DNA of 60,580 nucleotides, the filler included, from Dugesia japonica (Eukaryota): assembly GCA_001938525.1 (NCBI GenBank). It is 5 parts of 5 records of this genome, joined end to end, with 100 filler letters (N's around TTAATTAATTAA, not from the genome) between each part and the next. Parts side by side here need not be neighbours in the genome. Positions count along the whole stretch, not along the records: positions 35,578 to 51,461 come from MQRL01528443.1; positions 51,562 to 60,580 come from MQRL01607561.1; 3 more parts are not named here. One strand, given 5' to 3'. Below, piece after piece: positions 10,580-60,580 of the stretch (the first letter of the stretch is position 1; every line of letters begins with the position of its first letter). Below the pieces are notes generated by a model that was not told the origin of the DNA, searched no databases, and saw nothing but the letters and a program-made list of their open reading frames with translations. A program made the translations under genes and the position numbers.

Positions 10580-10945
10580 AGTATATGTCTAAAGACCCCA
10601 ATTCACTCAGGGTTATGTGAAATATTAACTGTCAAATGTTTTATGTCAAATATTTTATGTCAAAGGTTTTATGTCAAATTTTTTGTGTGAAATATTAACT
10701 GAAAAATGTTTTATGTCAAATGTTTTATGAGAATGTTTATTGTCAAATGTTTTTATGAGAATTTTTTATGAGAATGTTTTATGAGAATGTTTTGTGTGAA
10801 ATATTAACTGCCAAATGTTTTATGTCAAATGTTTTATACCAAATGTTTTATGTCAAATATTTCAACTGAGAATGTTTTATACCAAATGTTTTATACCAAA
10901 TGTTTTAACTGAGAAATATCAACTGAGAAATATCAAATGAGAAAT
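10580..10945 (+). repeat. Left TIR of Polinton 1 (array of ~14-bp AAATGTTTTATRYC units plus AACTGAGAAATAT units)
   Basis: Reverse complement of the array at 25808-26217. Confidence 0.9.
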
Positions 10946-11022
10946 TTAAGAGGAAAAAACTTAAGAGGAAAACAATATGCACTATTAAATTTTTTATAAT
11001 AAAAAAGAAGAAAAAATATAAA

Positions 11023-14000
11023 ATGTCTTCATTAAAATGTCCTAATTGTGATAGAATTTTTTTAAATCAACGTGGTTTAAATTCACATATACAATCTAAA
11101 AAATGTGTAAATATAAATTCAAATGATTATCTAACATGTGTAATTTGCAATAAAAAATTTAAAACTCAAGCTGGTTTAAATGTTCACAAGAAAAAAACTA
11201 AATGTGATAGTATTATTTTATATTGTGAATTTTGCGATAAACATTTTGAAACTGAAGAATTAATAAATGAACATAAACTAACTAATAAACGACATTTGTT
11301 ATTAGTTAAAAAAACAGATAGAAATCGGAAAACAAAACCAAAACATATTAAAGAAGTTTTTAATGAACAAACATATCCAGATCATTATATTGATATTTTA
11401 TTAAATAGTAGATTATTAATGGTAAAAGATGTTGAAGATCTAAGATTAACTACAATGGAATTAATAAGACCAGAAATAGAAGAAATTGTTAGAAAGTTTT
11501 TTACGTTAGGATATAAATTTTATTTTAAAATGGGAGTTAGTTGTGAATATAACAAAGAAAGTAAAATAGCGACGTTTTATTCTTACAATAGTAATAGAAA
11601 AATTTATACAAAAGCATCAATATCTAAAAAATTATATCAAACGTTTGAACAGGTAGAAAATTATATGCGAAATAAATATTTTAATGAATCTAATTGGAAT
11701 TTAAGTCATATAATTGATTATAGATTACAATTAAAAAAATATAATTCATTAATAAAAGCTGGTGCTTTTAGTTATTGTGAATTACCAGATAGCATAACAA
11801 AAAATAGAAATGGAATTATTAATATTAAAAACTTTGATGATAAATGTTTATTATATTCAGTTCTTGCACATTAACATATTTTTCATAATGCTAGAAGAGT
11901 AAATAATTATATTCCATATTTAAAAGATTTAAAAACTGAAGGAATGAATTTTCCAGCAGAAATTGGTGATATAAAGATATTTGAAAAGTTAAATAATTTT
12001 AAAATAAAGGTTTTTGAATAAAATTTAAAATTTAAAATTACACCAATTCGTATTAAACATTTTGATGTTGCACCAAATCCGGAAGAAAATAAATGTAATT
12101 TATTAATTTATAAAAGCCATTTTATATTAGTTAGAAATGTACAAGTTTTATTTAATGTTAAACATGGTAATCAATTATGTCTTGGATGTATGAATATTTA
12201 TTCAAGTAAAAACGTTTTATTAAAACATCAAGAAGAATGTATTCATCATAAATCATTGAGTGTTAAATTTCCTATTCAAGAATACTTCGAATTTCAAAAT
12301 CATTATTTTAAAAATAAAATACCATTTGATACCACACAAAAGAAAATAATATCCAAGAACCAATAAGATTAGGAATATATTTCAAATCAGATTATCCTGA
12401 TTTAATGGAAAGTGATTATTATTATTCCACAGGTGATAATGTAATTAATGAATTTATAGACTTTCTTGAAAATATTAATAATAAATTTAATGAGTTAAAT
12501 AAATAATATACAAATACATATCCAGCCTTCGTCAAAAACACAAAATGTTATTATTGTGAAAAACCAATCGTTGAAAATCCAATTAAAGATTATAATTACT
12601 TCACAGGTGAATTTCGTGGTTACACACATACAAAATGTAAACAATTAAAAAAAGAAAATTTATTTATATCATGTTACTTTCATAATGCAATGGGATATGA
12701 CAATCATTTATTTTTTAGACAACTTTTATATAATCATCCAAAAGGAATAAAAAATATAATTCCACATTCTGACGATCAATATATTTCATTTCACTATAAA
12801 AGTATTAGATTTCTAGATTCTTTAAAAATATGTAAAACTACAGTTGAAAAAATGGGTGAAACATTAGCTAAATCAGGAAATCATGAAATATTAACATCTT
12901 ATGATTTAAAACCTAAAAAAGCAAGTTTTCCATATGATTATGGTAAAGCAAACAGTGCAACAGAAGCTGAAGAATTATTAAAATCAAATAGAATGCCAAC
13001 ACAAAAATGATTTCTTTAGCAAATTAAGACAAAAAGGAATAACTGACAATGAACATGATGAGTTTTTAATAGATTATTTAAACTTTGAAAATATGTGGGA
13101 TTACATGTTACACTATATGAAACTTGATGTTTTAATTTTAGCAGATTACGTAGAAAATTTTAGAAATATTTATTTAGAGTTTTATAAAATTGATCCATGT
13201 TATTGTTTTTCAGCATCAGGTTTAACATGGCAGCTGGAATGAGATTTACATAAGTTAAATTGAAATATGCAAAATCAGAAACTTATGATACATTTTTAAA
13301 ATTTGAACGTTGAGTTAGAGGTGGAGAAGAAGGTGAACGCCAAGTATTTTCATATGATAAATTTCGTGATTTAAGTAGAAGGTTAATGTCAACTCCAGAA
13401 ATGAATTATTTATGTGAAGTTGATCTTGATTATCCAAGAGAAATTCATGATAGAACTAAATATTTTCCATTAGCACCTGACAGAATAGTTATTGCAGAAG
13501 ATATGTTAAGTAATTATCAAAAATCATTTAATATAAAACCAATGAATCAATTTGACAAGAAAAATTATATAATCCTAGGTTCAGCATTAGATTTATATCT
13601 TTCTTTAGGAATGAAAATAAAAAAGATACATTGTAAATATAAAATGTCAACAATTCCATGGTTAAAAGATTACATACTTTTTAATATCAACCAAAGAAAT
13701 ATAGCAAAAAGAAATAATGATGAATTTTGCGTATCTTTCTTTAAAGATATGAATAATTCATTTTATGGAAAAACACTTGAAAATATTAGAAATAAATGTA
13801 ACGTTCGTATTGTAGGAACTGATAGAGAATATCAAAATCTTATATCAAAACCAACATATTTAAGTTGTAAAAGTTTCAAATTACATCCTGAAATTTCATC
13901 TCACATTGGAGCAGTTCATTTAACAAAAACAAATTTAAAATATGATAAATTTTCATATTTAGGTTTTTAAATTCTTGAATATGCAAAAAAAGTAATGTAC

Positions 14001-14543
14001 AATTTTGTATATAACCGATTGGAATCAGCAGTTGAACAAGAAAATTATAAAATTCATTATTCAGACATGGACAGTGTATTTGTAGAGATAACTTGTAATG
14101 ATAATTTAGAAAAATTTAATAGTTTAACTGGAAATGATTTATTTCAGATGAAAGATGAAATGCCAAATAATACAATTCTTAAATGTGCTTTCATAAAACC
14201 AAAATCATATGCTTATGAATATTCCGATAATAATAAAGAGATAAAACTTTATAAAAAACATAAAGGTGTTTAATCTTTCAATAAAATTGGAATGAAAGAT
14301 TTTGATTCAATATTAAATGATCCAAAGAAAATAATTTATGGAACAAATTATTCATTAAAATCAGAATTACATGAAATTCAATTAGTTGAACAAAAAAAGA
14401 TAGCATTAACAGGATATAGCGATAAAAGAATTATTGAAGATAATGTAACTAGAACATGGCCACATGGAAATCAATTTAATTGTGAAAATTGTGAAGATTG
14501 GCATTTTAGATTAGATTTAATAAATCATAAAATTTTACATTAA
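11023..14543 (+). pseudogene. polB: Protein-primed family B DNA polymerase with N-terminal zinc fingers
   Basis: Three zinc-finger-like motifs; IINIKNFDDKCLLYSVLAH; FHNAMGYDNH; RFLDSL; FPYDY; YMKLDVLILAD; KDMNNSFYGKT (motif B); YSDMDS (motif C); KPKSYAY; DKR...TWPHG; several stops and frameshifts. Confidence 0.95.
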
Positions 14544-14547
14544 TAAA

Positions 14548-30949: not shown

Positions 30950-32620
30950 GATTATTTTGTGTCTTGTTAGATGTGTGCGTTCTACATCCAAATTATCTAT
31001 CATAAAAGTATCTTATTTACTTTTAATTATTTTCAATAACCGTTGATCCTCTTTAATCTTAAAAATATTTAAAGCTCTTGTTAATCGCTCTCCTTTTTTA
31101 ATTTGTCTCCCATATTTCACTTCAATATTACAAATGTAAGTTTCTGATTTTTCATCCGTTTTGCTGTTAACCTTTCGCATAAGCTGATATCCAAACATAT
31201 TCTGCATATCTATTCCTCCTATCAGATCTGGTGTCACTCTTTTAGCAACTAAGAAAGTAATCTCTTTGCAAACTTTATCAATTATCACTCCAATTTTAAC
31301 TTTTCGAACAATTTCAAGTGTAATATTATTTGCACAACGCAATCTTACATCACTCATTTTTAAATGCATTTTTCGTAATTTATTAAAAAAAACTCAAACT
31401 CATAACGTTAATTCTAGCCCTTGTATCTAATAAACATTCTACTTTATTTCCTTGAATTGATACCGTAATACTTGGTCTGGTTTGCAATTTATGGTAAGAA
31501 ATATTTGTTTTCTGTTCTGCTTCAATTGTTCCAACTCATTCTACTTTTCTATCATCCGCAAAATTTTCCATCTTTAAGAACCTGTATACTTTTTCTGTAA
31601 CTTTTCCTATATCATCCCACTTTTCAGCCCCTTGAGGATAATGACTAACTTCATTTAACAATAGATGGCTCCAACCAACTCCTCAACTGGTGGAGCCTTG
31701 CCTTTTGGGTACTGCCATTCAGAATCACTTTCATACTCTTCGTCATATTCATCGTTTGTATTAACATCTTCAGCTTCAATCGCGTGTACTCGATTATATC
31801 GGTTTTTTGATCTTTCTGTAGACATAAATTTCTCACTAGTTCTTTTCATTTTTAAATTTGTGTAGCACTTTTCTGCTCTATGTTCACCATTACCATATCC
31901 TTTACACCTCACTTTTTGACATAGCCTTCTAATATGGCCAACCTTTCTACAGCCAAAACATTTTGTCGGTTTTTTATTTGGACAATCTCGACTTATATGT
32001 CCTGTTTTATGACAACTCCAACACTCTACCACTTTTTTCGTTGGAAAATTTGCTTTATTATGACCTATCTTATGACATAACCAACATTCGATATTTTGTT
32101 TTTCCTTTCTTTGATCCAAATGTCTATTCACGGTGTGATTTACAAGTTTCTGATCATTTTGACTTGTAACTCTCGTGTAACTTCTAACTGCATTGACTTG
32201 ATCTAGGTTTTTCTCTTTTCTTTCTACTAACGTTAATATTTCTTCAATTTATTCTATATTCTCTCGTTTCNGCAAAGTCACTTCTTCTTCAACTTTTTTG
32301 TTATCTGAACAATATTCTAGCATCTTTGCTACCACTTTTTCTTCAGCAAACTCTTTATTTGTAAATATTCGTTTTACTAAATCGTTTACATTTTTAAAAT
32401 AAACTTGAATCTCTTCATTTCCATGCCTGTAATTAATCAAATTTGGAAAATCTTTGATAACATCTTTCTCTTTTTCAAATGCCATACGTTAGCGAGCCTG
32501 GAAACTTTCAACATTTTTAATCATCTTTACATATTCTTCCAAAAATTCTTCATCTAACAAACAAGAGACTAATCTTTCCTGTTGTTTCACATGGGTGATG
32601 TTTTTAGCTTCAAAATACAA
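30950..32620 (-). pseudogene. Ty3/gypsy gag-protease fragment
   Basis: Several CCHC knuckles (CWSCHKTGHISRDC, CFGCRKVGHIRRLC), protease ECLLDTRA, linker homologous to 44280-44480; truncated at both ends. Confidence 0.85.
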
Positions 32621-41400: not shown

Positions 41401-44400
41401 AAGAAATATTGGCAAGAATAAAACTTTTGAAAGAATTAATTAAAGCTCGAGATTATTATAATAATTTCTTAACTAGTAATGTAATAGAATCTAAAACTTA
41501 AGAAGACACTTTAACCTGTGAACAACAACCTACTATTAAAGCTATTGAAAAATTAAATACAAAATATATAAACCCTTTTGAAAATAGAATACCATTCTTT
41601 CCTAAACTTAATTTAAATATTGATAATTGATCTTAAACAATTATACCTATATTTAAAATAGAAGTTATTAATAACAAAAACTTTCAAAAAATAGTTTACC
41701 CACACAAAGAAGTATATTTATTTGAAGAAAATGGAAAGAAATACTTTTTAACAAAAGAAGAACTAATACCTTATTCTGAAGAAGTAATGTATTTAATTTT
41801 AGGAAATGGAAGTAATGATCCAGAAGGAAAATATATTTATTTAAATAAATAAAATATTAAATTTCCAACTAATTGTAACTTTTATAAATTTTTAACTGGG
41901 AAAAAAACTTCAAAAATACCAATGCTTAAAAAAGAAACTCTTATAAAAGAAATCCAAGAAGATATTATTCAAGATGAAGGTTAATAAAGCTTTAAAAGAT
42001 TATGAAGCTCCTTCAAATCGCAAGCAAATGCGAGTCGAAAGTGATATAATAACTTTATTTGAAAGATTAACATAATTAATTTCAGCAGTAAAAGCTGGTC
42101 ATAATAATCTACACAAAGAAATAAAATCAGTTTGTAAAGAATTATTAAACCAAGAATTAATTTTCCAAATAAAAATAATACGTTTATAAANATAAGTATT
42201 TTGTGTAGTGGTAGTTTTAATAAATTTAAAATAAAGAAAATATCTCATCAATTTTTAGTTGTTGAAAAAGAATCTAATTTAGAAGTTTAAGATTTCTAAT
42301 AGAATTAGATTCTGATTATGAAATGGGATTATTATGTTTTAGTTGTTATAATATAATTGTTAATGTTACTTGTTAGGAGTTTAAAAATAAAATCCTATTT
42401 GTAATTTTAAAAATCATCATTTTTAAATAGTTTTAATAAATTTAAAATTAATTATTATAGCCAGTAAATTTTTCAACATTAGAATATTAATTTTTTATTG
42501 TTAAATAAATTTTTAAGTTATTGAAATTATTTTATGTATATAGAAACTGAACCCAATAGCTTAGCGACAGCTAACATGGCGACTACTACCACGGATTTAT
42601 TAATCAGCAGATTATTACCTGAGAGATTCTACAGAAAGGATAACCTAGAAGAATTCATTACAGATTGCCAACAATTTTTCAGAGTCACCAATACAAATCT
42701 GAAGATGCAGAAAAGTTTTGTAACTACCTTGTTGGATAAAGAATTGTTTGAGAAATACGAAACAGTATAAGGAAAATCGTTTGAAGAAAAGCTCAGAAAT
42801 GCCTTCCAAAAACCAAGTTCCTTAATTGAAGATCTAAAAGAAGCTTTAGGTTATGAACAAGGCAACNATTCGGCAGAGATATTCATCGATTAAAATCAAA
42901 AATTTGACAAAAAAGTTAATTATTCATAAATGGGACGAAGAAGAAATAGAAAAATGCTTATTAATGCACTGTGTTGGAGATAAAGAAGTAAAAACAGTAA
43001 TAGAAATGAGAGAATTAAGAACATCAAAACAAATCAGATCAACACTAACGAATGTTGAAAATGTAAATAAAGCAATTGTTAATATCAATGTTCTTAGAAC
43101 CTCAACAACAAAGAATGTCCGAAGTTATACATATGTGATACAGAAGGGACAGTTAAGAGATGCAAATATGAAAATAAATAAATATGATGAAAATAGACGA
43201 ATTCTAGTTTGTTGGACAGGCCAAAAACCAGGGCATATAAACAGTGATTGCCAAATGAAAAGAAGTTTTCAATGCTATGCATGTACAGCATTTGAACACA
43301 TGCGCAGAGAATGCCCAACAATTCAGTGTGGAAGATGTCTTCTGCTGGGACATAAAACAACAAAGTGTTACACAAATTTAGAAAGAAGACAGAAAGCGAG
43401 AATAGTTGATAATATAAATTATAATAGACATGATGATTTCAGAAATCAGAGTAATGAGACTAGAGATTTCATAAACAGAGATCAACAGAGGAACAAACAA
43501 AATAAAAAATGATATCAGGTATCAGTTCTAATGGGGATACACCAGTAGAAGAACAAACAATGAACTAACTGGGGAATATGAAGCAATAAATTACCCAAAA
43601 GGTTATGCTCCTTCCAGAGAGGCAATAGTCGAAGCAATTTATTAGGTAATTTTGAAGTTGATAATGATATTGGCTATGATAATGTAAATAAAATAGAGTA
43701 TTTTAATTTAAGTAATAATAATATTAAAAAATCATCTAGTAATAAATTATGTAATATGTATAGTAATAATTTTTTTAATTCTAAATATGATAATTATCTT
43801 GTAAATAATAATGATAACAATGAATATATTGAATGGAGAGTTACAGAGAAGATTTATAAATTTATTAAGAAAGATAATAATGTAAATGAAAATGAAATAA
43901 TAGAAGGTATTTCGATAAGCAAATTTTAACTATAGATGAAAGGAAACGACAAAGAATAACCTATAATAAAACGCTAGGCAGATCAAGTATAACGATATTT
44001 ATCCAGGGTCGTAAGATGGAGTGTCTATTAGATACAGGTGACCGTGTTAACGTATTATCAAAAACAATACTAGATAAATTAGAAGATGTAGAAATAATTT
44101 AAACCGATGAGTTATTAAGATGTGCGAATGATAGTAAATTAGAAAAAATGGGTAAAATTCATGTTAATGTCAAATTAGGAAATGAAGAGAAGAAAATAAC
44201 ATTCATAGAGGTAAAAACTATTATTCCGGATATTATTAAAGGTATTTAGCGTAAAAATCAATTCGGTATAGAACTGACATGGATAGAGAAAACAAAAGAA
44301 AGAACAGAATATTTTATATGGGATATAGAAGCAAAGTATGGCAGAAAAATCAAGGATGATGAAAGATTACGATGTGCTATAGAAATTTTGAAATTGAGCA

Positions 44401-47400
44401 AAAATATTAGATTAATGAAAATCGCGCAAAGAAATAAAAATATCTTCATAGCAGACAAGTGGGATATTGGGTGCACGGCTTTAATTGAACACGGAATTAA
44501 AACAAATGGAGTGCCGATAAATATAAAACCAAGGAGGCAGCCTGTAAATTTAGAAGGAAAAATAAATGAGGCTTTAAAAAATTTAGAGGACAATGATATA
44601 ATCAGGAGATACAACTCACCTTGGAATATACCTTTGGTATGTGTATGGAAACAAAGAAAGAAAGATATCAGATTGTGTCTAGATTTTAGACAATTGAATC
44701 AAATTACGGAAAGACAAGCATTCCTTATGCCAAATGTCGAAGACATTTTGGATACATTACATGGAGCTAAATATTTTAACTCCGTCGATCTAGGAAACGC
44801 TTATTACCAAGTAAGGTTTGATAAAAAATCGCAAGAAAAAACGGCTATTTCCACAAAGGAGGGTCAATTTTGTTTCAATAGAATGCAATTTGGCAATACA
44901 GCAGCTCCTGCAACCTTCCAAGAATTGATGAATAAGATATTAAAAGAGATGTGGAAGGACGGAGTAATGGTATACTTAGATGACATTTTGATTTTTACTG
45001 ATTCAATGGAAATACAATATATTATATTGGAAAAGGTTTTGAAGACAATTATAGATGTAGGAATCAGAGCTAATCCAGCAAAAAGCCAACTGTTAAAAAG
45101 AGAAGTTAAGTTTTTAGTTCACATTATAAACGATAAAGGTATTCAAACAGATGCGAGTAAAATAGAAATTATCCAGTCATTTCAAAGACTAAAATGTGTA
45201 AAAAACTTGAGGAGTTTCTTAGGCATATGCAATTATTATCAGACGTTTATTGGGGATTATGCAAAGAAATCAAAAGCATTAGAAGCTATGTGTGGGAAAA
45301 ATAATTCAAAATTGATATGGTCTGATTTGTGTGAAAAGCATACGAAGAAATGAAATTAGCATTAATAAGCTATCCAATATTGATATTCCCAGATTTCCGA
45401 AAAGAATGTTTACTCGACACCAATGCAAGTTTTGATACCATTGAAGCAGTATTATCTCAAAATTGATGAATACGGACATGAACATGTAATATCATATGGA
45501 TCTCATTCCATGAATGATCATGAANNNNNNNNNNNNNNNNNNNNNNNNNNNNNNNNNNNNNNNNNNNNNNNNNNNNNNNNNNNNNNNNNNNNNNNNNNNN
45601 NNNNNNNNNNNNNNNNNNNNNNNNNNNNNNNNNNNNNNNNNNNNNNNNNNNNNNNNNNNNNNNNNNNNNNNNNNNNNNNNNNNNNNNNNNNNNNNNNNNN
45701 NNNNNNNNNNNNNNNNNNNNNGAATTTAGAAAAGGTACAGCACATAGTAATGCAGATATGTTTTCAAGAAATAAATGTGGAACACGCGTGCAATGTCTAA
45801 TGGACCATGACCAACCAAAAGTAGGGTGATTAAAAACGAGATTATTAACCATCATTGCGGAAGATAATGGTGAAAATTGGCAAAATAATAGGGAAAATAA
45901 TTGAGGGGTATTATAGACAGGAGACTGCTACATTTATTGTTGAAGATGGTATTGTTTACACAAAACATAACAAGATATGGGTCCCGTCGTGCAATAGACA
46001 AGAAATGATTAAAGAGACTCATGTTTTACTGTGTCATGCAGGAGCAGAAAATACAATGAAATATATTAAAAATAATTTTGATATGAAGGATTTGGTTGTT
46101 GAATGAAAATGAATTATATGAGAATGTGATCAATGTCGAAAGACAAAGATAGTAACGACAAAAGTAAATGAAGAAACTAAAGTAGTAGTGGTAAATGAAC
46201 CGTTGGAGAAAATATATATGGATATTTGTGAACCGTGGAAAGAAGACGAGAGAGATATATTTGTGCAATTATTGACCATTACAGTAAATAAATGATATTA
46301 ACTGCTATAAATAAACAAGATGAAAAGACAATAGTCCAAGTTTTACTGAATAATTGGATACTAAAATTTNNNNNNNNNNNNNNNNNNNNNNNNNNNNNNN
46401 NNNNNNNNTTTGAAGCAAAGGGTGTAAAGGAAGTGACAAGTGCAGCAGGAATTGAGCTAATATTCTCTAGTCCATACCATCACAAAACCAATGGCATGAT
46501 GAAAAGACAGTTTTGAACCATTAGAGAATACATAAATGCATCATTAAAACATCGACTTAATACAGATTGTGCAGATATAATTCCGGAAATTGAGTACACT
46601 TTGAATTCGACAACTCAGAAAACCAACGGAGTAAGTCCAGCAGAAATTGTATTTGGAATAAAAATTAATAGATCAAAATGGTTTAGTAACAGCAAAGTAG
46701 ATAGAGAAGCAATGATGATGAAAATTGAAACACAAAAGAAGGAATATAACATAAGAATAGCACGGAATTTGAATGTTGGAGACGATGTTCTAATTAAGCA
46801 AGAAATACGTAATAAAGATCAAAATAGATTTGTAGAACCATATACGGTCGTCGAAGATTAAAGATTTTTAAAAATCGGGATGTTAGGAGTTAAAAAATAA
46901 ACTCCTATTTGTAATTTTAAAAATCATCATTTAGAAATCGGTTATTGAAGTAACCAATTTTTTTATATTTTGTTTGATTTTTAGATTTTAATTTTTAGAA
47001 ATTATTACCATGGTAAATAAGTTTAAGAAATCATTTCGATTTTTTATTGTTTTCATTTAAGAAATTAATTGCACAACTTTTTTCATTTTAGAGATTTGAG
47101 AAAGTTGTATACTGCAGTATACACTTTTTTCATTTGTAGAGATTTTTAAGTTTTTAGATTTTAAATTTTTAGATTTTAAAAATAGTGAGATTCGCTCACA
47201 TTAAATTACATTTTAAATTTCGTTTTAATTTATCTAACATTAAATGCCACTGCTTATAAATTTTATAATAAACTTATTTCCTTGTTGTCAAGTTCTTACA
47301 CCATTGCTTTCAATTAATCTCTTATCATCATAACCTGTTAAAGCTATTTTCTTTTGTTCAATTAATTATATTTCATGTTTATTTGATTTTAAAGTATAAT

Positions 47401-49699: not shown

Positions 49700-50340
49700 A
49701 TTTCCAACGTCTCCGACTCTTTCAGATTTTTAACACCTTTTCAACCTTTATATACGTCTGTATTTCGAACCTTCTGAATTCTGTAATCTTACATGATGAG
49801 ATGATAAGAATTCCATAATTTCGAAAGGCCTGTCATATATAATCGTTTTACCGGATCTCTCTTTACCAGATCTTTATCTCCAACTTTAAATTCCCTTCAA
49901 CTCGGTTTCCTTCTTGATTGATAATTTTTTCCGAAGCTTCGTTCAGTTTACTTTCGGCCTTTTCCAGAATTTCTTTACGGTTACTCTTGAATTCTTTCGT
50001 TGAATCAATATTAATTGTCCTTCCATAGATAACTTCCACCGGAGAGAATCCTGTCGCCTTTGATATCGTGCAATTGAATAGAAAACTCAACTTTTGAATG
50101 AATTTCATCCCAACCCTTCTTTTCTTCTCCAGATTTCAAAAATATTACTATCATATATCTGACAGTTCTAATTGCGCGTTCTGCTTAACCATATGACTTA
50201 TACTCATGGGGAGATGTAAATGTCCACGAAATATAAAATCTTGAAGCAAACTCTTGTAAAACCTTTCCTTCAAACACTCTTCCTCGATCAGAAACAATAC
50301 GTTTAGGTTTTCCATATTTGTAACTCCAGTTATTTAACAA
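49700..50340 (-). pseudogene. Gypsy integrase C-terminal fragment
   Basis: NNWSYKYGKPKRIVSDRGRVFEG, SPHEY, KATGFSPVEVIYG. Confidence 0.8.
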
Positions 50341-50479
50341 AGCACTTTAAAAAAACTCAAAATGAAAATTTAAAACAATTACTTATTAGTCATTTAATTT
50401 TTTCATTCCTATTTAAATCTTTTTTAAATAAAGGATTTCAAGAAAACTATCACAAACTTCACAAAAATTTCAACTCGCT

Positions 50480-51050
50480 TTTCAAAACATACTCACATCT
50501 TCCTTTTTCTACGTTTTTTTCGAGACTTTTTCCAACTGTATCTTCAAGGATGTAACATCTGTCGTGAAACTTTCCTTTAATCTTTTAAGGTCCTTTAAAA
50601 CAATCTAAGTTCTTGTCTCTTGTTTCAACTTTGACTAAAGCCTAATCACCGACCTCGAGTTGTCTTTTGGTTAGTATCTCTTCATCTTGCTCTTTGTGCA
50701 CTCTNTGAGTATTTGTTTCGCACCATTTTTTTCTGCTTATTCTTTTCCCAAATACAATTTCAGCTGGGCTATTTCCTATGGTTTCCCGCAATACATTGCC
50801 CAATATGAGGTTTGCATTTCTTTTACTGTCGCATTTATCATGTCTCAAATAGTTCTAGATTGTCTTGCAATTTTTCCATCAGTGTTATGATGATATGGAC
50901 TCGAAAACCTGAGAGTAATGCCATGTTCAGCTGTAAAATCTTCCAATGATTTTGACTCAAATACTCTTCCACAATCAACTTTAATCTCCCTCTGACACTT
51001 GAACTTTAATAACCACTTCTCCATTATTGTCTTGTCATTTCTATCAAAAC
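50480..51050 (-). pseudogene. Gypsy integrase C-terminal fragment
   Basis: IKVDCGRVFES, FSSPYHHNTDG, SPAEIVFG, LEVGD; homology ends at about 51050. Confidence 0.85.
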
Positions 51051-51580
51051 TATATACGTGTTGGGATGAGACACCGGGTACCGAAAATAAAAATTGCGAC
51101 AAGTAGACTCGAAGTTAAAAAATTGTCGTCAGAAAAGAAAGCGAAGCATTCAGACCTAAGAAGAAAATAGTTCAGTGAAAGAAGAAAAAAATTTTTAAAA
51201 AACCGAGATTGTTAGTTAAAACCAACGAAATAATCAACAAAACTCAAAATTTACAACAAGAAACCACTCAGAAAAAAACAGACCAAAGAAGAAAAAAAGT
51301 AATAGAAGTTGTAGCAGGACAAAGAAAGATAATGAATAACCATTATTTCGTCGGGCAAAATCAAGAAAATGGAATTAATTATTAATTATTAAATAATTTA
51401 AATGAAGAAAACAGTGAAATTAAATTAAAACCAAATCAAGGAACAAAGAAATGAACACTTANNNNNNNNNNNNNNNNNNNNNNNNNNNNNNNNNNNNNNN
51501 NNNNNTTAATTAATTAANNNNNNNNNNNNNNNNNNNNNNNNNNNNNNNNNNNNNNNNNNNNACAGAAATCATCACTTTAT

Positions 51581-53010
51581 TTGGACCAGGAAGGGAATAT
51601 CGGTACACCCAAGAAACCAGAAGTTAACAGATCAAATTCACTACATAAAACCAAAACTCTAGAACCTATCAGTTCAAACAGTAGCCCAAGTGATAAAGAA
51701 AACAAAGCCGACCAAAAAGCCACATCTAATAAAACTCCAGGGGATAGTAATCGATCAAGTGGACTAAGTTATACATCAGAGGAACCAGAAATCGTAGAAG
51801 TAGCAAACACCAGCCTAGTAATCATCAACTCACTAATAGTACAACCCGACGAGGTAGAAACCGAGACATCCACATTAACAAAACAAAACCCGAAAATAGA
51901 AATTAATTTGGAAAAAGATAAAAATATGACAACTAAGACCGAAAACCATAGACCAGAATGGAAAATAAAATTCGACGGTGAATATTTTAGTGGAATCCCA
52001 GAAAAATTGGATGAATTTATACAAAATTACGAAATGTATGCCAAGACCTGTGGCTGGGATGAGGAAGCAAAAAGAAAACGACTACCGGCTTACTTAACAG
52101 GAGTAGCAAAAACTGTATTTTGGGATCATACTAAAGGCATGGAAGCCATTCCNNNNNNNNNNNNNNNNNNNNNNNNNNNNNNNNNNNNNNNNNNNNNNNN
52201 NNNNNNNNNNNNNNNNNNNNNNNNNNNNNNNNNNNNNNNNNNNNNNNNNNNNNNNNNNNNNNNNNNNNNNNNNNNNNNNNNNNNNNNNNNNNNNNNNNNN
52301 NNNNNNNNNNNNNNNNNNNNNNNNNNNNNNNNNNNNNNNNNNNNNNNNNNTTCTTAAACGGATTACGCGACGAAAATGCCAAATTAATGGTAAAATTAAG
52401 TAAACCAGTAACGCTACAGGATGCTTTAGCTACATTACGAATTGTAGCAGACCGACCATCGGAACGAATATTCAAAGTGGAAGGACAAGCCGAGGAAACT
52501 TCACCAAGGATATCGGACTTCATACCGAATACACAATCAATGATGAAAACCCTGACCCCAGGGCAGGAAAGGAATAACCGGAATGACAGACCAAATTATC
52601 CTAGAGGAAATAATGGAGGATTTAATGCACCACGGAATAATTGGCAAAACAATCGAGATATCCAATGCAATACATGCGGTAGAAGGGGACACATATCTCG
52701 CGATTGTAGAAGCAAAGGCAATAATAGTAACAACAACCGATTCTGTACTTATTGTAAGAAGACCAACCACAACGTGGAAACGTGTTTTTTGAAAAACCCG
52801 ACCGTATGTTATAAATGTAATAGAAGGGAACATATGGCAAAAGAATGTCAAGCCGGAAATCAAACCAATTATAATCGAAATCCGAATACAAATCTAGAAA
52901 ATCTCATGCAAGAAAACGAGAGATTGAGACAGCGAGCAAATCAAAACAAGGGTGATGAACCAGTTGCTACGATTATAGCACCCACAAGTACACGCCAAAG
53001 TACGGGCTAA
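51581..53010 (+). CDS. gag: Ty3/gypsy-type Gag
   Basis: KFDG...LDEFIQNYEMYAKTCGWDEEAKRKRLPAYLTGVAK capsid-like region; FLNGLR; three CCHC knuckles (CNTCGRRGHISRDC, CTYCKKTNHNVETC, CYKCNRREHMAKEC); spans an N-gap. Confidence 0.88.
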
Positions 53011-56000
53011 TTGGCAGAAAACGATATCAGATTACATTACCGAACTGTACCAGGAAACCTAGTTAGAGGATTATGAGTTCGAAATTCAATACGTATGGCA
53101 CAACAACCCAGAAGTCATTCCAAAACGGGTAAAATTACCACTAAAAGAAATGACGGTACGACATTTGAAAATAGCACTTAACAATATAAAGTGGGATAAC
53201 ACAAACCCATCTCTCGACTCACTACCATTTGACGAGCAACAACAATGGAATAGGAAGTGGAATAAACATCGAATACAAATAAACAATATTGGCATCAACA
53301 TTACTCCAGACGATAAGAATTTAATCTATTACGGGGCAAGACCTCATGAGATAACAACGATCAAGTTAATTAATTGGGGATTAGTATTCAGACCCCAGAT
53401 AGTAATTAAAGAAACAGATACAGGCGAGCTATATCATAATCTAGAAGAAACATTCCTAAAGGAAATTGTTCCCCTTCAGTCACAACCGTACATGCGTAAA
53501 AGATTGGGGACAGTAAGGTTAATGGACCATCTGGAATTGGGACAAATCGAAGCATCAAGATTATCACTAGCTCGGATAGATGAGATATTAGTAGCCGCCA
53601 AGAAACTCAACGACACCATCAGGAAGGAAGTATATTTAAAATTGACAAACCGTTTAGTGGAGCTTTTGGAAGTTATAAAATTGATAACCACGGAAGAAAG
53701 TGATTGGACGGAATGGTTACCAGTCCATTACGATTGGGTAATATCTAATATGGGATTATCGGATTATCAAGTATGGTTGTATAATCCGGAAGGTAATATG
53801 AAATTAACTCTTGCGGGATTAATGGTAGAAGATCTGGAAACTGCACTCAGTCAAGCCGGTCATACATGCGTGATGGATAAATACGTATGTACTCCAAGTG
53901 CGATAGTGGATTTTAATGCTCGAAAAAGACATATCTATGACTTTGGAATAAAGCCTGGAGAAGATATTGAAATCGTGATATTAGACAAACACCCCGGTAT
54001 CGATTACGACGTATGGGTAACAAAAACGGAAAGATCAGCCTTAGAAATCATGGGGGAAATGGAATATCTATATAAACAAGGAGTAGAGCCCATTAAAATT
54101 AAGATACTTTGCACAGTGCTCGGAAAGAAAGATAAACTAACGAAGGACGAAAGGAAACAATTGTTAATGACGCGTAATGACTTCCTCAGACAACGATTGG
54201 AGAGGAGAGAAGGTAAATGCAACATGATTCGAATGCAACAGATGCCTTCAAGGGAGATAATAGCAATGCGTAAAGTGGAGGAGATGGTTAACAGAATGCA
54301 GATGGAGAAGGAGAATTTACCCCGAGAAACCTATTGGATGATAATGAATAGAATCTACGACATATATGATGGACTAAAGATACCAGAGGAAGTCGAAAAG
54401 CAGTGGCTCATGATTAGGCAGAAGTATGCCGAAGAAATATTAGCGACTACCAAGATTCGGGACTATCAATTATATTTAAATATCGGTAAAAATGAACAAG
54501 ATTTGACGAGATACAGTCGATTGAAACCACAAGGAATCACCATGATGGATTTAATGGANNNNNNNNNNNNNNNNNNNNNNNNNNNNNNNNNNNNNNNNNN
54601 NNNNNNNNATGAATAGAATCTACGACATATATGATGGACTAAAGATACCAGAGGAAGTCGAAAAGCAGTGGCTCATGATTAGGCAGAAGTATGCNNNNNN
54701 NNNNNNNNNNNNNNNNNNNNNNNNNNNNNNNNNNNNNNNNNNNNNNNNNGGTAAAAATGAACAAGATTTGACGAGATACAGTCGATTGAAACCACAAGGA
54801 ATCACCATGATGGATTTAATGGATGCTGTTACGGATAAGTGGCGAGAACAAGGGTTAAATATGGTACCCCTATTTATAAATGGCAAATTGGTGGAAACGG
54901 ATGATGAGGATAGACATATATTCCAATGTCACGCCAAACCTGGAGAAATATGTGAGCTGGATGGGGAGGACGAATCTCGAACAATCCCATCACCGAATCT
55001 TAATGAAAGTATGGATGAAATAACAGAAATATATGTGACTGAAGTATTGGCGGGCATGAAGGAACAGATAAAGGAGAATCAGAAAATACAGGATATTGAT
55101 AACTTGCCAATAACCACCACCAAATCTGTTGTATTCCCAGAAGGGACACCCACAATACGTGATATTCGGATAAACTACACCAAACCGATAACGGAGGAAT
55201 CGGCCACGTTTCATGCTATTAATGACTTAATGAGAGTAACTCGCGAAACTCGCCCAGTAGTGGATATCAAAGTATATTGGAAAATGATGAATAATCTACG
55301 AGATTTAGCTACCTATGGTCAACTTAGCTTGTGGGCTAGAGCACAATGGTGGAAAGAGAAAAATTTATATGAAGAGGAAGTGCAAAACACCTCCACCATA
55401 TCGGATTACTCCATCAGAGTTAGCCTGCTCAACAAGGAAGGGCACATAAAAAAGGTCGATATGATAACATTGGAGGGATTAACGATGCGATACATTTTGA
55501 AACCGATAAAAAAATGGCTATGGCCAAAATCCATCAAATCTTATAAAATACAGGCTGGAGCAACAACAATCCTCTTAGCCAAAAAAGCAGATCACATCTT
55601 CTTGCACGATATCAAACCGGGAGAGATCACAGAAATCAAACTAACGCCACGTAAAATGGCAGTAGACCTTCCAATACCAAAAATGCCGGATACCGATCAG
55701 CTCATATTCAACATGATGAGTTTATATCTACAAGAGATATTGCCGATAGAAAATGAACGACTCATAAATACTTATGGCGAAAATAAAGCCCAAGTAAATA
55801 TGGTCCGGAGTGGAGATCCTGACACACCAGACCTAAGCTCAGACGAAGAAGAACAGGATGAGGGAATCTCGAAAGATATGGGCCAAACCCGATTGTTACC
55901 CTTTAAACCCGAATTCGCTGGTCCCTTCAGTTCTCCTCAGACGGAGCGGATATCGAAAATAATTGCAGACTTCTGTTATTTTCAGGAAAGAATACCGCGA

Positions 56001-57879
56001 GTAGCCTTTTGGAGAGCATTGAATTTATTGATGGATCTGACAAAATATACGGAGATAACTAAGGAAGACCGTGCCAAATGGGAATCGGTAATCACGCCGT
56101 ATATTGGTACAGTAAAGGCAAGCGTCCGGGGAAAAGATTTCCAAGTTACAATAGAATACTTGACGCCAAACAAGAAACCCAGGAAGGAACCGGAATTGGC
56201 GGTTATGCATATACCAAAATTCGATAGCACATCAGCAAGAGAATTACAGGAAATTATACAATCACTGGATATAAATGATCAACAGAAAGGTTATGCGATT
56301 ACTAGTGATCACCTAAGATTTCCGATAAAGTTTGAAGGGAAGCAACATCTAATGGACGTCGGGTTAAGGCCTGGTGAAAATACATTCCTTCAAATACAGA
56401 GGCACGAGGATTACATTCCAGGTCTAGTGAAATCTATGGGGGAAGTGATCCAACAATTAGAACAATTACACGAACAAGAAATCAACGGGGGGACAGTTAT
56501 TCGAAGAGATCGATGATAGAACAATGGAGATAAATATTGAACTATGGGAAGGCAGTAAAACATGGGGAGGTTTAGCGCGAGTAATAATGAAAATACTTTT
56601 AACATTAGAAGAAAACATGGAACTGTTACGACATGATAAAGTAATCCAATTAGTTCTCAAACTAAATCAACTACGAGCTATAAGCCAAATGCCCGAAGAC
56701 ATTATGGATGCGATATTAAATAAAGCAGTTCGAATGATAGCCAACGAAACAGTCAACGTAGTAATAAAATTTCCTGATGAAAGTGAACTTCAATGGCAAG
56801 TCCAGATGAATGAGCCATGGGCTAAGTTACGAAAAAGGATCGTAAAATTCATGAACCAACAACGCAATTTTGACGAGGAAGAAACTGGGACACAACCAAC
56901 AGTACAAGAAGACGATATAATACTCTATTACAACCAAGTAATAGAACCGGATCAAATGAGACTACCAGTAAAATATATGGGGGTTTGGCCGGGTACTAAA
57001 TTAAAACTCTACGTAACAGCAAAGGGGGAGAAGAGACCACGACCACGAGTCTCGGAAGAGAAATGGAAGCAGGAGGCGAGAGAATTGGTAGAATATTACG
57101 TAGAAGAAATACACCCCTTAGTATTTGCAAGAGCTAAACTCCCGAAGCAAGAACAAACAAAACAAAAAGTGGAAATGGTGGCAGCCTTGACCAACACCCC
57201 GGTCAAAGATGAAAAGCCGGAAGACAATTTGCCAAAACTATTCGAATTATTGATGGAGAATAAATTAATAAAGCCAGAAATTATCCGGTGGTGCAATGTG
57301 GTTCTACAACAAGACCTGACAAGAGAAGACCTCAGAAAATTGCGACGACTAATATTGGCTGTCAAAGCATCCCATGTTTGGGACCCGACTCAGTTTAACA
57401 AACTTCTGGTTAAGTGGCGGAAAGCAGAAATGGGCCAGGCCACGCCATTAGAAATCAAATTCCGGATAATCGACCCGGAAGGAGACAAAACCACGATTAA
57501 GGTACCAGTTTATTATACGGTAAAGCATATACGGGAAAAATTGCCGTTTAAGCCACCATATAAACTCTTAGACGACGAAGGAATAGTGGAGGACACCACC
57601 CCAATCGGACTGATGAAAATAGACTTAATCAAACCTAATACGTTGTGGATTTTCCCAGAATTAGGAGGTACCCTTACTCGAAAAGACGCAGACCCTAATA
57701 AAGCAGCGGATAAGACTCGACCAATAATGGGCAAAACTTCGGGTATGTTGAAGGATTATAAACAGCGAACACAACTAGCAGCTAGCCAAATATTGGCCAA
57801 CAACAGACCAATCAGGAAGTACCGAAGCGTCTCGGGAAACGAAAGGAACCCCCAAAACCAGCCAGGACTGGGAACGTGA
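52979..57879 (+). CDS. Repeat protein with ~7 ubiquitin-like domains separated by helical segments (part of a larger frameshifted ORF)
   Basis: Recurrent DY/DF-beta start and C-terminal signatures YGARPHE, FGIKPGE, CHAKPGE, HDIKPGE, VGLRPGE, MGVWPGT, DLIKPNT; ORFs 53150-54616, 54609-56516 and 56524-57879 abut. Confidence 0.6.
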
Positions 57880-58387
57880 AATATTCGGATCCCCATCAGT
57901 AGACGAGTCAGTGGACGACGAAAACGAAGTACAAATTACAAAATATTCGCCTCCAATTAGGAAAAGTGAGGAGAAAAAGGGCAAAAAGGTCACACCAACT
58001 AAAAAATATGACCCCACCAAGGTCGACTTGGATGAGGAAGACATATTGGAAGACCAACCACTATCACCAATATTAAGTAGAATAGCGAAAGAATTACCAT
58101 CGTCGGGGATGAATGATTTCATGGACGCAAACCATCCGCTAGACATGGAAAATCCAATAGCGATAGTAGAGAAAGAGACACCACCAAAACCAGTACGCAC
58201 CCGAGTAGATGCGGAAAGAATTACTGAACCACGTAACAGAGGGCGACCAAGAACGAAACCTCCCGGAAACCCAGAGGAAGAAGAAGTGTTAAAACAGAGA
58301 CGACTAGCAACATCAATAAACCATCAAACTAAGAGATTAGCAACGGTGTCACAAGAGAGATATCAAGAAAATTCAGTAGACGATGAC

Positions 58388-58790
58388 ATGCCCACAGAGG
58401 TAGTAATACGACAATTATTGCTAATGCTATATCCAGAACTGAAAATATGGATCGGTAAATTTCAATTATCCGATACCCTCCGACCATTAGCAAAAGAAAT
58501 CGAGGCAGCAATTAGGAAATTCCCTGCTACTAAAGGAACTAGTCATGGTACTAGAGATAACCTAGAGGGAGTAATAGATGAACTATTACAGGATTCACCT
58601 ACGAACGGAAGAGTAGTAGTATCTATTGCACACCTAATCAATCAGACACACTTATCAATTGCTAGAAGCAAGCCGTCAAAAAACTTCATTCTCAGTAAAT
58701 TGCCGATAGTGGACCTAATGCAAAACAAAATAGTGCCATTGATAAAGCAACAAGGTGGATGGAAAAAGTTTATTGAGATCATTTGTCCTA
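58388..58790 (+). CDS. Bcl-2-like domain within ORF 57911-59827
   Basis: BH3-like DTLRPLAKEIE, BH1-like VIDELLQDSPTNGRVVV and BH2-like LIKQQGGWKKF in canonical order and spacing. Confidence 0.7.
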
Positions 58791-58885
58791 AGCCACAACC
58801 ATCACATGAAAATGCAACTCGAGTAATAAAAATTGTTCGGGATCAGTTAAACGAAATAGAGAATGGATGGACACGTGGAAATTCG

Positions 58886-60580
58886 TGGCAGGCGTTAGCA
58901 ACCACGATACTCGTGTTGTTCTTAATGATGGGTAGAAGCGAAGCCATACTGGCGTATGACTGTGACAAAATACAGGTTGGGAAAGAAGTATTCTCGCTAA
59001 TAGATACAGAAGAATGCCCAGATGCAAACCCCGAAAAAATTTCACTTCGAAACAATTCGGTCTATCATCTCTATCAGGAGTCAGATTATTATAAAGCCCA
59101 GGTACGCGAGTGTGCGGTAACGGTAAGNACTTTCATATTTCATTGNGNNTATCATAGTTATNCGTCAATAATCGATCCCGGAACGGTAAGGCATCCGGTA
59201 CACTTAACCGGACAGCAATGCGATGAAGGATTTGCTACAGGGAAAATTACCATCAAACATGGTACTCAAGTTGTTGCCAAGAAAGGACATGTAATCGACC
59301 AACCTATCGAAGCAGCAGGAAGTATATCCACCCATAAGGGTAATTGCGAATATGGTACATATACTATACGAGGAAAGGTATGGCAATATGCAGTATCAAT
59401 CGAAACCTACACAGTAGAACTCAAGAAATATGAAGCATTTTTTAATGCTCAGGATTTGACGATGAAAAGAAGGTCATACTGCAAGGCAGCCGATGGGGCA
59501 TGCAATACAGGCACATCAACATTGACATACAAAGTAGATCACCAGGACTGTAAGTTGGCACACCTAAAAGAAGCCGTGTTTAATGAATATCAAGGACAAC
59601 GTGCAATATCGCCTACTAATCAAGCAACCCCAGCAGGTAATCTAAAAGATGTAATAGATAATTTCAAGGAAAACATAAAGACAGGCCCAAAATCATATGA
59701 CCAACAGTGNNNNNNNNNNNNNNNNNNNNNNNNNNNNNNNNNNNNNNNNNNNNNNNNNNNNNNNNNNNNNNNNNNNNNNNNNNNNNNNNNNNNNNNNNGG
59801 CCAAATAGTGTTCAAAACCAACTATAAAGGGATCTTTGTGTCCGAACACCGAATAAGAACGGCGAAAGCCACAGTAATATCAGAAGATATCAAACTACAC
59901 CTTTATACCAATAACAAATTGGACAACATATTTTATCGAATGCAAGATACCATCGGACGGATGTACCACGATCTCGTCCAAAATGACTGTACCTTAAACA
60001 AAGAGATATTAAAAACAAAACTAGCCATGGCAGTTACGAACCCTGACAGTGTCACCCCATTACTTCCATTGGAAAAAGGATAATTCGGTCGAGTAGTAGG
60101 AGAAGTGATGTACTTATATAAATGCAAGGCCATCGATGCAGAATTCTCGTCAAATCCAAAACACTGTTACAACGAAATAGAAATTATTCACAACAACAAG
60201 AAAAGATACGTACAACCCATTACGCGAATAATATCGCCGTTGGGCTATAGGCCGAATATCATAAATTGTTCCAACGTGTTTGGACCACAATACGTAATGA
60301 CGGACGGTTCATGGATAAGGTTCCCACAACGAATGTCAGTGGGAGTCGAACCACGGAAATTCTCGATGTTACGACTAAATGGAGGTATGGAATTTACTCC
60401 AATCGATATAAACAAAGGAGGGATCTACAGCAGAGAAGATTTAGAGAAAGCAAGAGAATATATGTTGTTCCCAGTCCGAAGAATGCATATTCTCTCAAAT
60501 ATCGTGCAATTAACCAGTGGAACCAACATCGACGGCCGAGTAAACTATGACGCGTTATTATCAGCGGACCACTTTCAAAA
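58886..60580 (+). CDS. env: Chuvirus-like (class III-type) envelope glycoprotein, runs off window
   Basis: Signal WQALATTILVLFLMMGRSEA/ILAYDC; SLIDTEEC; LYQ...VREC; AAGS...GNC; YTNNKL; GEVMYLYKC; CYNEI; PITRI; GGIYSREDL...MLFP; one in-frame stop at 60081. Confidence 0.85.

Follow-up and report, generated by a model that had tools for sequence, protein, structure and literature searches.

Gag, ubiquitin-fold repeats, a Bcl-2-like domain and Env in a probable Burro-like Ty3/gypsy retroelement of Dugesia japonica

Gag and the reading frames of the element

The window, i.e. the whole 60,580-nt stretch of Dugesia japonica DNA analysed here, changes in composition at 51 kb: G+C shifts from about 20–30% to 30–43%, and the plus strand is steadily A-rich from there onward, with an AT skew of +0.39. 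The 5′ end of a plus-strand element is placed at 51059–51461. This segment starts with TG and has an A-rich leader; it is a candidate short LTR or 5′ untranslated region, and self-comparison finds no second copy of it within the window. On the minus strand, two older, decayed gypsy integrase fragments lie at 49800–51058; the element begins directly inside the second of these (rve, E 7.6e-5), and no long LTR is visible between the two.

The gag frame follows at 51563–53010 (plus strand), interrupted by an N gap (52153–52350) and closed by its own stop at 53008–53010. It features three CCHC-type knuckles at about 52663–52872 (Pfam zf-CCHC, E 1.9e-9; the pattern of the third was read from the translation), in agreement with the gypsy-type gag proposed in the earlier note. 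The reading frame of the cargo, i.e. the domains between gag and Env, starts immediately afterwards in a different frame (53011–53062, plus strand), with an in-frame stop at 53060–62 in the present copy. Because gag ends in its own stop, access to the cargo frame would require frameshifting, re-initiation or splicing. In the contigs aligned to 52820–53260, for which 40 of the 65 differences are listed, four of the six variants within gag affect third codon positions as read in gag's own frame and, in the cargo frame, third positions account for 12 of the 15 in 53011–53110; within 53011–53062, third positions of the cargo frame hold seven of the nine listed variants. None of the listed differences changes the frame, the sole listed length difference being frame-preserving. 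Given this bias on both sides of the junction and the lack of a listed frame-changing difference, the offset between gag and cargo looks like a trait of the subfamily. Many sister contigs diverge from the window's sequence near 52.95 kb, and gag may therefore be fused to the cargo in other subfamilies.

The four long same-strand ORFs described earlier are present on the plus strand at 53063–54616 (A), 54555–56516 (B), 56461–57879 (C) and 57779–59827 (D), with pieces of Env continuing to the end of the window. From 53063 to the end, minus 265 duplicated bases, they amount to about 2,418 codons, which agrees with the proposed single ORF of more than 2,400 codons. The break between A and B is likely an assembly artefact: the proposed duplication at 54.6 kb is seen as a 265-base tandem duplication (54344–54823), its arms are 100% identical over 86 and 74 bases at a spacing of 265 and lie beside N runs, and no back-joint is found among the 15 of 19 joints listed for the contigs of three sequencing runs. 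The B/C break lies at a G run (56482–56492), near the G6 at about 56487 to which it had been attributed, and here sister contigs vary in length (nine contigs with 27% of the summed depth in run X1, 19% in X2 and 31% in X6). The C/D break falls in a two-frame overlap (57779–57879, plus strand) and had been ascribed to a C5 at about 57849. The length differences listed for sister contigs instead fall at about 57.79 kb, with none at the C run, which makes a position near 57.79 kb more likely.

Two in-frame stops, at 53060–62 and, within Env, at 60081–83, were absent from the earlier note. At the former, another letter occurs in 92% of the summed depth (X1). The two stops indicate that this copy is decayed, beyond mere mis-assembly. 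The sequence between 54750 and 59127 contains no N.

Contigs of the three runs, which share one source organism, extend over each of the 30 bins of 51563–59127, with 30,048, 18,243 and 16,998 aligned pieces. Identity to the element is mostly 90–95% (15,497 of the 30,048 pieces in X1). Such coverage by diverged pieces points to a large, diverged repeat family, the counts themselves not being a measure of copy number. In RNA run X12, 11 reads of 13.6 million align to the element, all of them only partly.

Architecture of the cargo and Env

The 5′ part of the cargo, all on the plus strand, is dominated by ubiquitin-fold repeats. Five of them are mutually homologous, as judged with a leave-one-out profile whose score was reached by none of 500 shuffles for each repeat. 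Repeat 1 is at 53069–53380 (26.2 bits; Atlas lead of 0.83 for residues 1–320). Repeats 2 to 5 are each preceded by a three-helix bundle, which is itself repeated and had been missed in the earlier note. The four pairs of three-helix unit and repeat, identified by alignment and leave-one-out profiles, occupy 53540–53992 (17.1 and 21.8 bits), 54242–54965 (overlaid by the assembly duplication), 55188–55652 and 55920–56405, and the units keep their register across ORFs A and B. The unit at 55188–55652 is predicted to fold as three helices followed by a ubiquitin fold. Further downstream, a ubiquitin/SUMO-like domain 6 (56749–57024) has Atlas language-model features that score 0.90 to ubiquitin and Rad60-SLD clusters, and is not matched by the profile of repeats 1–5. 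A candidate ubiquitin-like domain 7 (57445–57669), ending in Gly-Gly, was recognised as a pattern by eye and gives no match in Pfam, PDB or profile comparisons. Thus, of the roughly seven repeats claimed earlier, five are homologous, the sixth is ubiquitin/SUMO-like by its features yet lies outside the repeat profile, and the seventh is a visual assignment.

The paired units may have arisen through tandem duplication. The array could dock the host ubiquitin/p97/proteasome machinery multivalently or serve it as a decoy; alternatively, its units could be spacers that the element's protease would free. A similar alternation is familiar from BAG1-type proteins, which combine a ubiquitin-like domain with a three-helix BAG domain; the likeness is that of a ubiquitin fold alternating with a three-helix bundle, here beside a Bcl-2-like domain. 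Pestivirus polyproteins carry ubiquitin inserts and, by speculative analogy, host enzymes might cut after the Gly-Gly of domain 7.

The array is separated from the remaining domains by a charged, Pro-rich linker (57880–58370), likely disordered judging from the composition of its translation. The Bcl-2-like domain that follows (58380–58790) contains BH1-like and BH2-like motifs, with the BH1 tryptophan replaced. Its Pfam Bcl-2 match (E 0.003, 18.5 bits) is below the curated cut-off of 31.4, and Bcl-xL accounts for 43 of its 48 weak PDB matches (Bcl-xL alignment E 0.24); together these are consistent with the Bcl-2-like domain proposed earlier. The signal or anchor that had been noted corresponds to the most hydrophobic segment of the cargo–Env frames (58892–58951; hydropathy 1.67 over 19 residues), likely an internal signal peptide of Env, and the Pfam match to Env begins here. 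Env itself, a gB/chuvirus-type fusion glycoprotein (58952–60580), has an N gap at 59710–59798, and the window ends before the membrane anchor. It matches PF24664 in three collinear pieces (E 4e-29, 5e-10 and 5e-25; profile positions 5–515 of 653), so that the glycoprotein assignment holds. The Bcl-2-like domain, the signal segment and Env share one open frame.

By analogy with known membrane-protein topology, translation of the long protein would proceed in the cytosol as far as its first hydrophobic segment, and this would serve as an internal signal peptide. Env would then pass into the lumen of the ER and be released by cleavage, leaving the Bcl-2-like domain held at the membrane, on the cytosolic side, through the hydrophobic segment, comparable to the tail anchor of host Bcl-2 proteins. 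In this position it could dampen apoptosis in the cell making particles, and Env could let the particles enter neighbouring cells. The ubiquitin-modulating and anti-apoptotic functions of the cargo are putative.

Relationship to Burro and to other enveloped elements

The available text of PMC6431247 describes Burro/GYPSM1 elements as having a Gag with three or two knuckles, a Ubi2/SUMO-like domain (PF11976) preceding BCL-2, and an Env, located between BCL2 and the protease, that matches mononegavirus fusion glycoproteins, all in a single ORF of 4,873 or 5,140 aa; decaying fragments with stops and frameshifts are reported there from Dugesia japonica. The present element is alike in its CCHC knuckles at the 5′ end (Pfam zf-CCHC; three patterns), in a ubiquitin/SUMO-type fold between gag and the Bcl-2-like domain (the predicted fold and the features of domain 6), in a Bcl-2-like domain directly before Env (weak but consistent, by Pfam and by Bcl-xL alignments with BH1/BH2-like motifs), and in an Env of this type in frame with it (PF24664), as well as in its many and decayed copies. 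The order of capsid/gag, ubiquitin-fold domains, Bcl-2-like domain and Env is therefore already published for Burro elements, and the headline architecture is not new. The earlier note had called the architecture undescribed, subject to there being no described family with the same domain order, and since the published Burro order of Gag, Ubi2/SUMO-like, BCL2 and Env, followed by protease and pol, is such a case, this claim fails. Its broader description, of an enveloped gypsy-type element whose Env is fused to apoptosis-related and ubiquitin-fold cargo, agrees with both the evidence and the literature. Taken as a whole, its ORFs, duplication, G-run break, Bcl-2-like domain and Env stand, whereas its repeat count and C-run break needed revision, along with the unlisted stops and the word undescribed.

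There are also differences. In Burro/GYPSM1, Gag shares one ORF with the cargo and Env, while here gag stops at 53008–53010 in another frame. One ubiquitin-like motif is named there, against five homologous repeats, four three-helix bundles and one or two further ubiquitin-like domains here. The protease, dUTPase, RT, RNase H and integrase that follow Env in Burro, with a total of more than 30 kb including LTRs, have no counterpart in the window, which ends in Env; LTRs lie outside it or are unrecognised. Pfam gives no match up to E 1 to MATH (present in Burro1), BIR or ankyrin in any of the eight pieces searched, a search in which divergent domains can be missed and from which the 3′ half is absent. 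Because gag is out of frame with the cargo, and the comparison with Burro is one of published descriptions rather than of aligned sequences, the element is classed as Burro-like and not as Burro1/GYPSM1. The element would work like Burro. PMC13465017 reports at second hand that Burro1 protects planarian stem cells from apoptosis via its BIR/RING region, another cargo domain. As far as their available text goes, PMC8532177, PMC11410931 and PMC13238120 contain nothing further on domains.

The Env also has relatives outside Burro. The available text of PMC13524379 describes six Schmidtea GAG-ENV-POL Ty3/gypsy elements with an HSV/gB-type, chuvirus-like Env, and the Env found here is of this type by PF24664 and by hand counts for three of the six (Smed_errantivirus_1, _5 and _6, leaving out numbers 2–4). 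Gapless counting by eye gives about 69 of 156 identical positions (about 44%) with Smed_errantivirus_5 and about 61 of 156 (39%) with Smed_errantivirus_6; about 49 of 156, also by eye, are identical with Smed_errantivirus_1. Between the Envs of numbers 5 and 6, identity is 42.7%. The likeness to these two is that of a homologous Env, placed before pol in theirs, and concerns the Env segment, not the upstream halves. They span 16.9 and 18.0 kb compared with 14.5–14.9 kb for numbers 1–4, and may therefore carry similar longer cargo; the words Bcl, ubiquitin and Burro do not occur in the main text of that paper. BEL/Pao elements with a chuvirus-derived glycoprotein, cited in the same text, resemble the present element in that an LTR element has captured the same Env family, but belong to another superfamily, and no Ubl or Bcl-2 cargo is described for them there. 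Membership of the present element in the planarian GAG-ENV-POL group is likely, and pol would be expected after Env, as in its relatives, the window ending inside Env.

The analysis shows how the domains are ordered, the array of repeats, the fold of one unit, a large family and the decay of this copy, and we conclude that the element is very probably the 5′ half, now decayed, of a Burro-like planarian Ty3/gypsy retroelement present in high copy number, with gag followed by a cargo–Bcl-2–Env frame that likely continues into pol beyond the window. Base composition and the nearest Env sequences point to a planarian host. It is improbable that it is instead a non-autonomous element of gag, cargo and Env, lacking pol and mobilised by a Burro-type helper. 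The window does end without pol, and gag is a separate ORF; however, Env itself is cut at position 515 of 653 of its profile, so that the absence of pol is not an observation, and pol accompanies every one of the closest Env relatives. Slightly less probable still is a mosaic built from nested insertions, or a chimeric scaffold in which different repeat subfamilies are joined. Signs of it could be seen in the assembly duplication and the several N gaps, in the departure of many contigs near 52.95 kb, in the lack of a contig spanning all of 51563–59127 in the three runs, and in the roughly tenfold fall in summed depth at 53081–53333 and 57129–57634. These troughs fit segments that vary between subfamilies, and continuity is seen elsewhere: the repeats keep one register from ORF A into ORF B, the Bcl-2-like domain and Env share one open frame, 54750–59127 contains no N, strand composition stays uniform between 51 and 60.6 kb, and the domain order is that published for Burro. 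Hardly credible, finally, is that a chuvirus-like RNA virus left an endogenised glycoprotein gene which came to lie behind a gypsy gag by chance. The Env family is indeed one of Monjiviricetes, but the nearest sequences seen are retroelement Envs, no relative was found in viral contigs by a search reaching close relatives, and the gene is in frame with the Bcl-2-like domain in very many copies.

Within the favoured Burro-like assignment, only the long row of repeated ubiquitin-fold modules may be new. Searches of the literature did not find the tandem three-helix and ubiquitin-fold array, but the Burro publications may show it in figures or supplementary files, and the longer spans of Smed_errantivirus_5 and _6 hint at its presence there. 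It is possible, though we think it rather unlikely, that the element belongs to a lineage of planarian enveloped retroelements not yet described, whose three-helix and ubiquitin-fold module was amplified in tandem in a frame separate from gag, and whose array ends in a di-glycine ubiquitin-like domain cut by host deubiquitinases; a multivalent decoy of the ubiquitin system and a membrane-anchored Bcl-2 mimic beside a fusogen would then amount to host control in the style of large DNA viruses. Few retroelements carry host-control cargo, and the Burro type is one of them. For the half of such a polyprotein that had lacked annotation, the present copy provides a description of the structure, with its duplicated three-helix and ubiquitin-fold unit, and it supplies small, foldable natural domains for testing whether these elements act on ubiquitin and cell-death pathways.

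Neighbouring elements in the window

Decayed Polinton/Maverick-like pieces are located at 10927–23364, where C2H2 fingers precede DNA-polymerase-like ORFs (the polymerase recognised by eye) and the minus strand encodes a Pox_A32 ATPase, an rve integrase and a parvovirus-type phospholipase A2-like domain. Related polymerase-like DNA occurs, inverted, at 47.5–48.1 kb. Among the helical-looking ORFs of the Polinton-like region, a unit is present in three diverged copies about 480–590 bases apart (17391–19575). The region is flanked by one 14-base minisatellite in inverted orientation, at 10585–10950 and 25756–26217, about 15 kb apart, which possibly represents its terminal inverted repeats. A small decayed gypsy element at 42371–46943, with a gag-like ORF and an RT (E 3e-26), is bounded by 63-base direct repeats that are 90% alike, and a further gag fragment with CCHC knuckles lies on the minus strand at 31655–32248.
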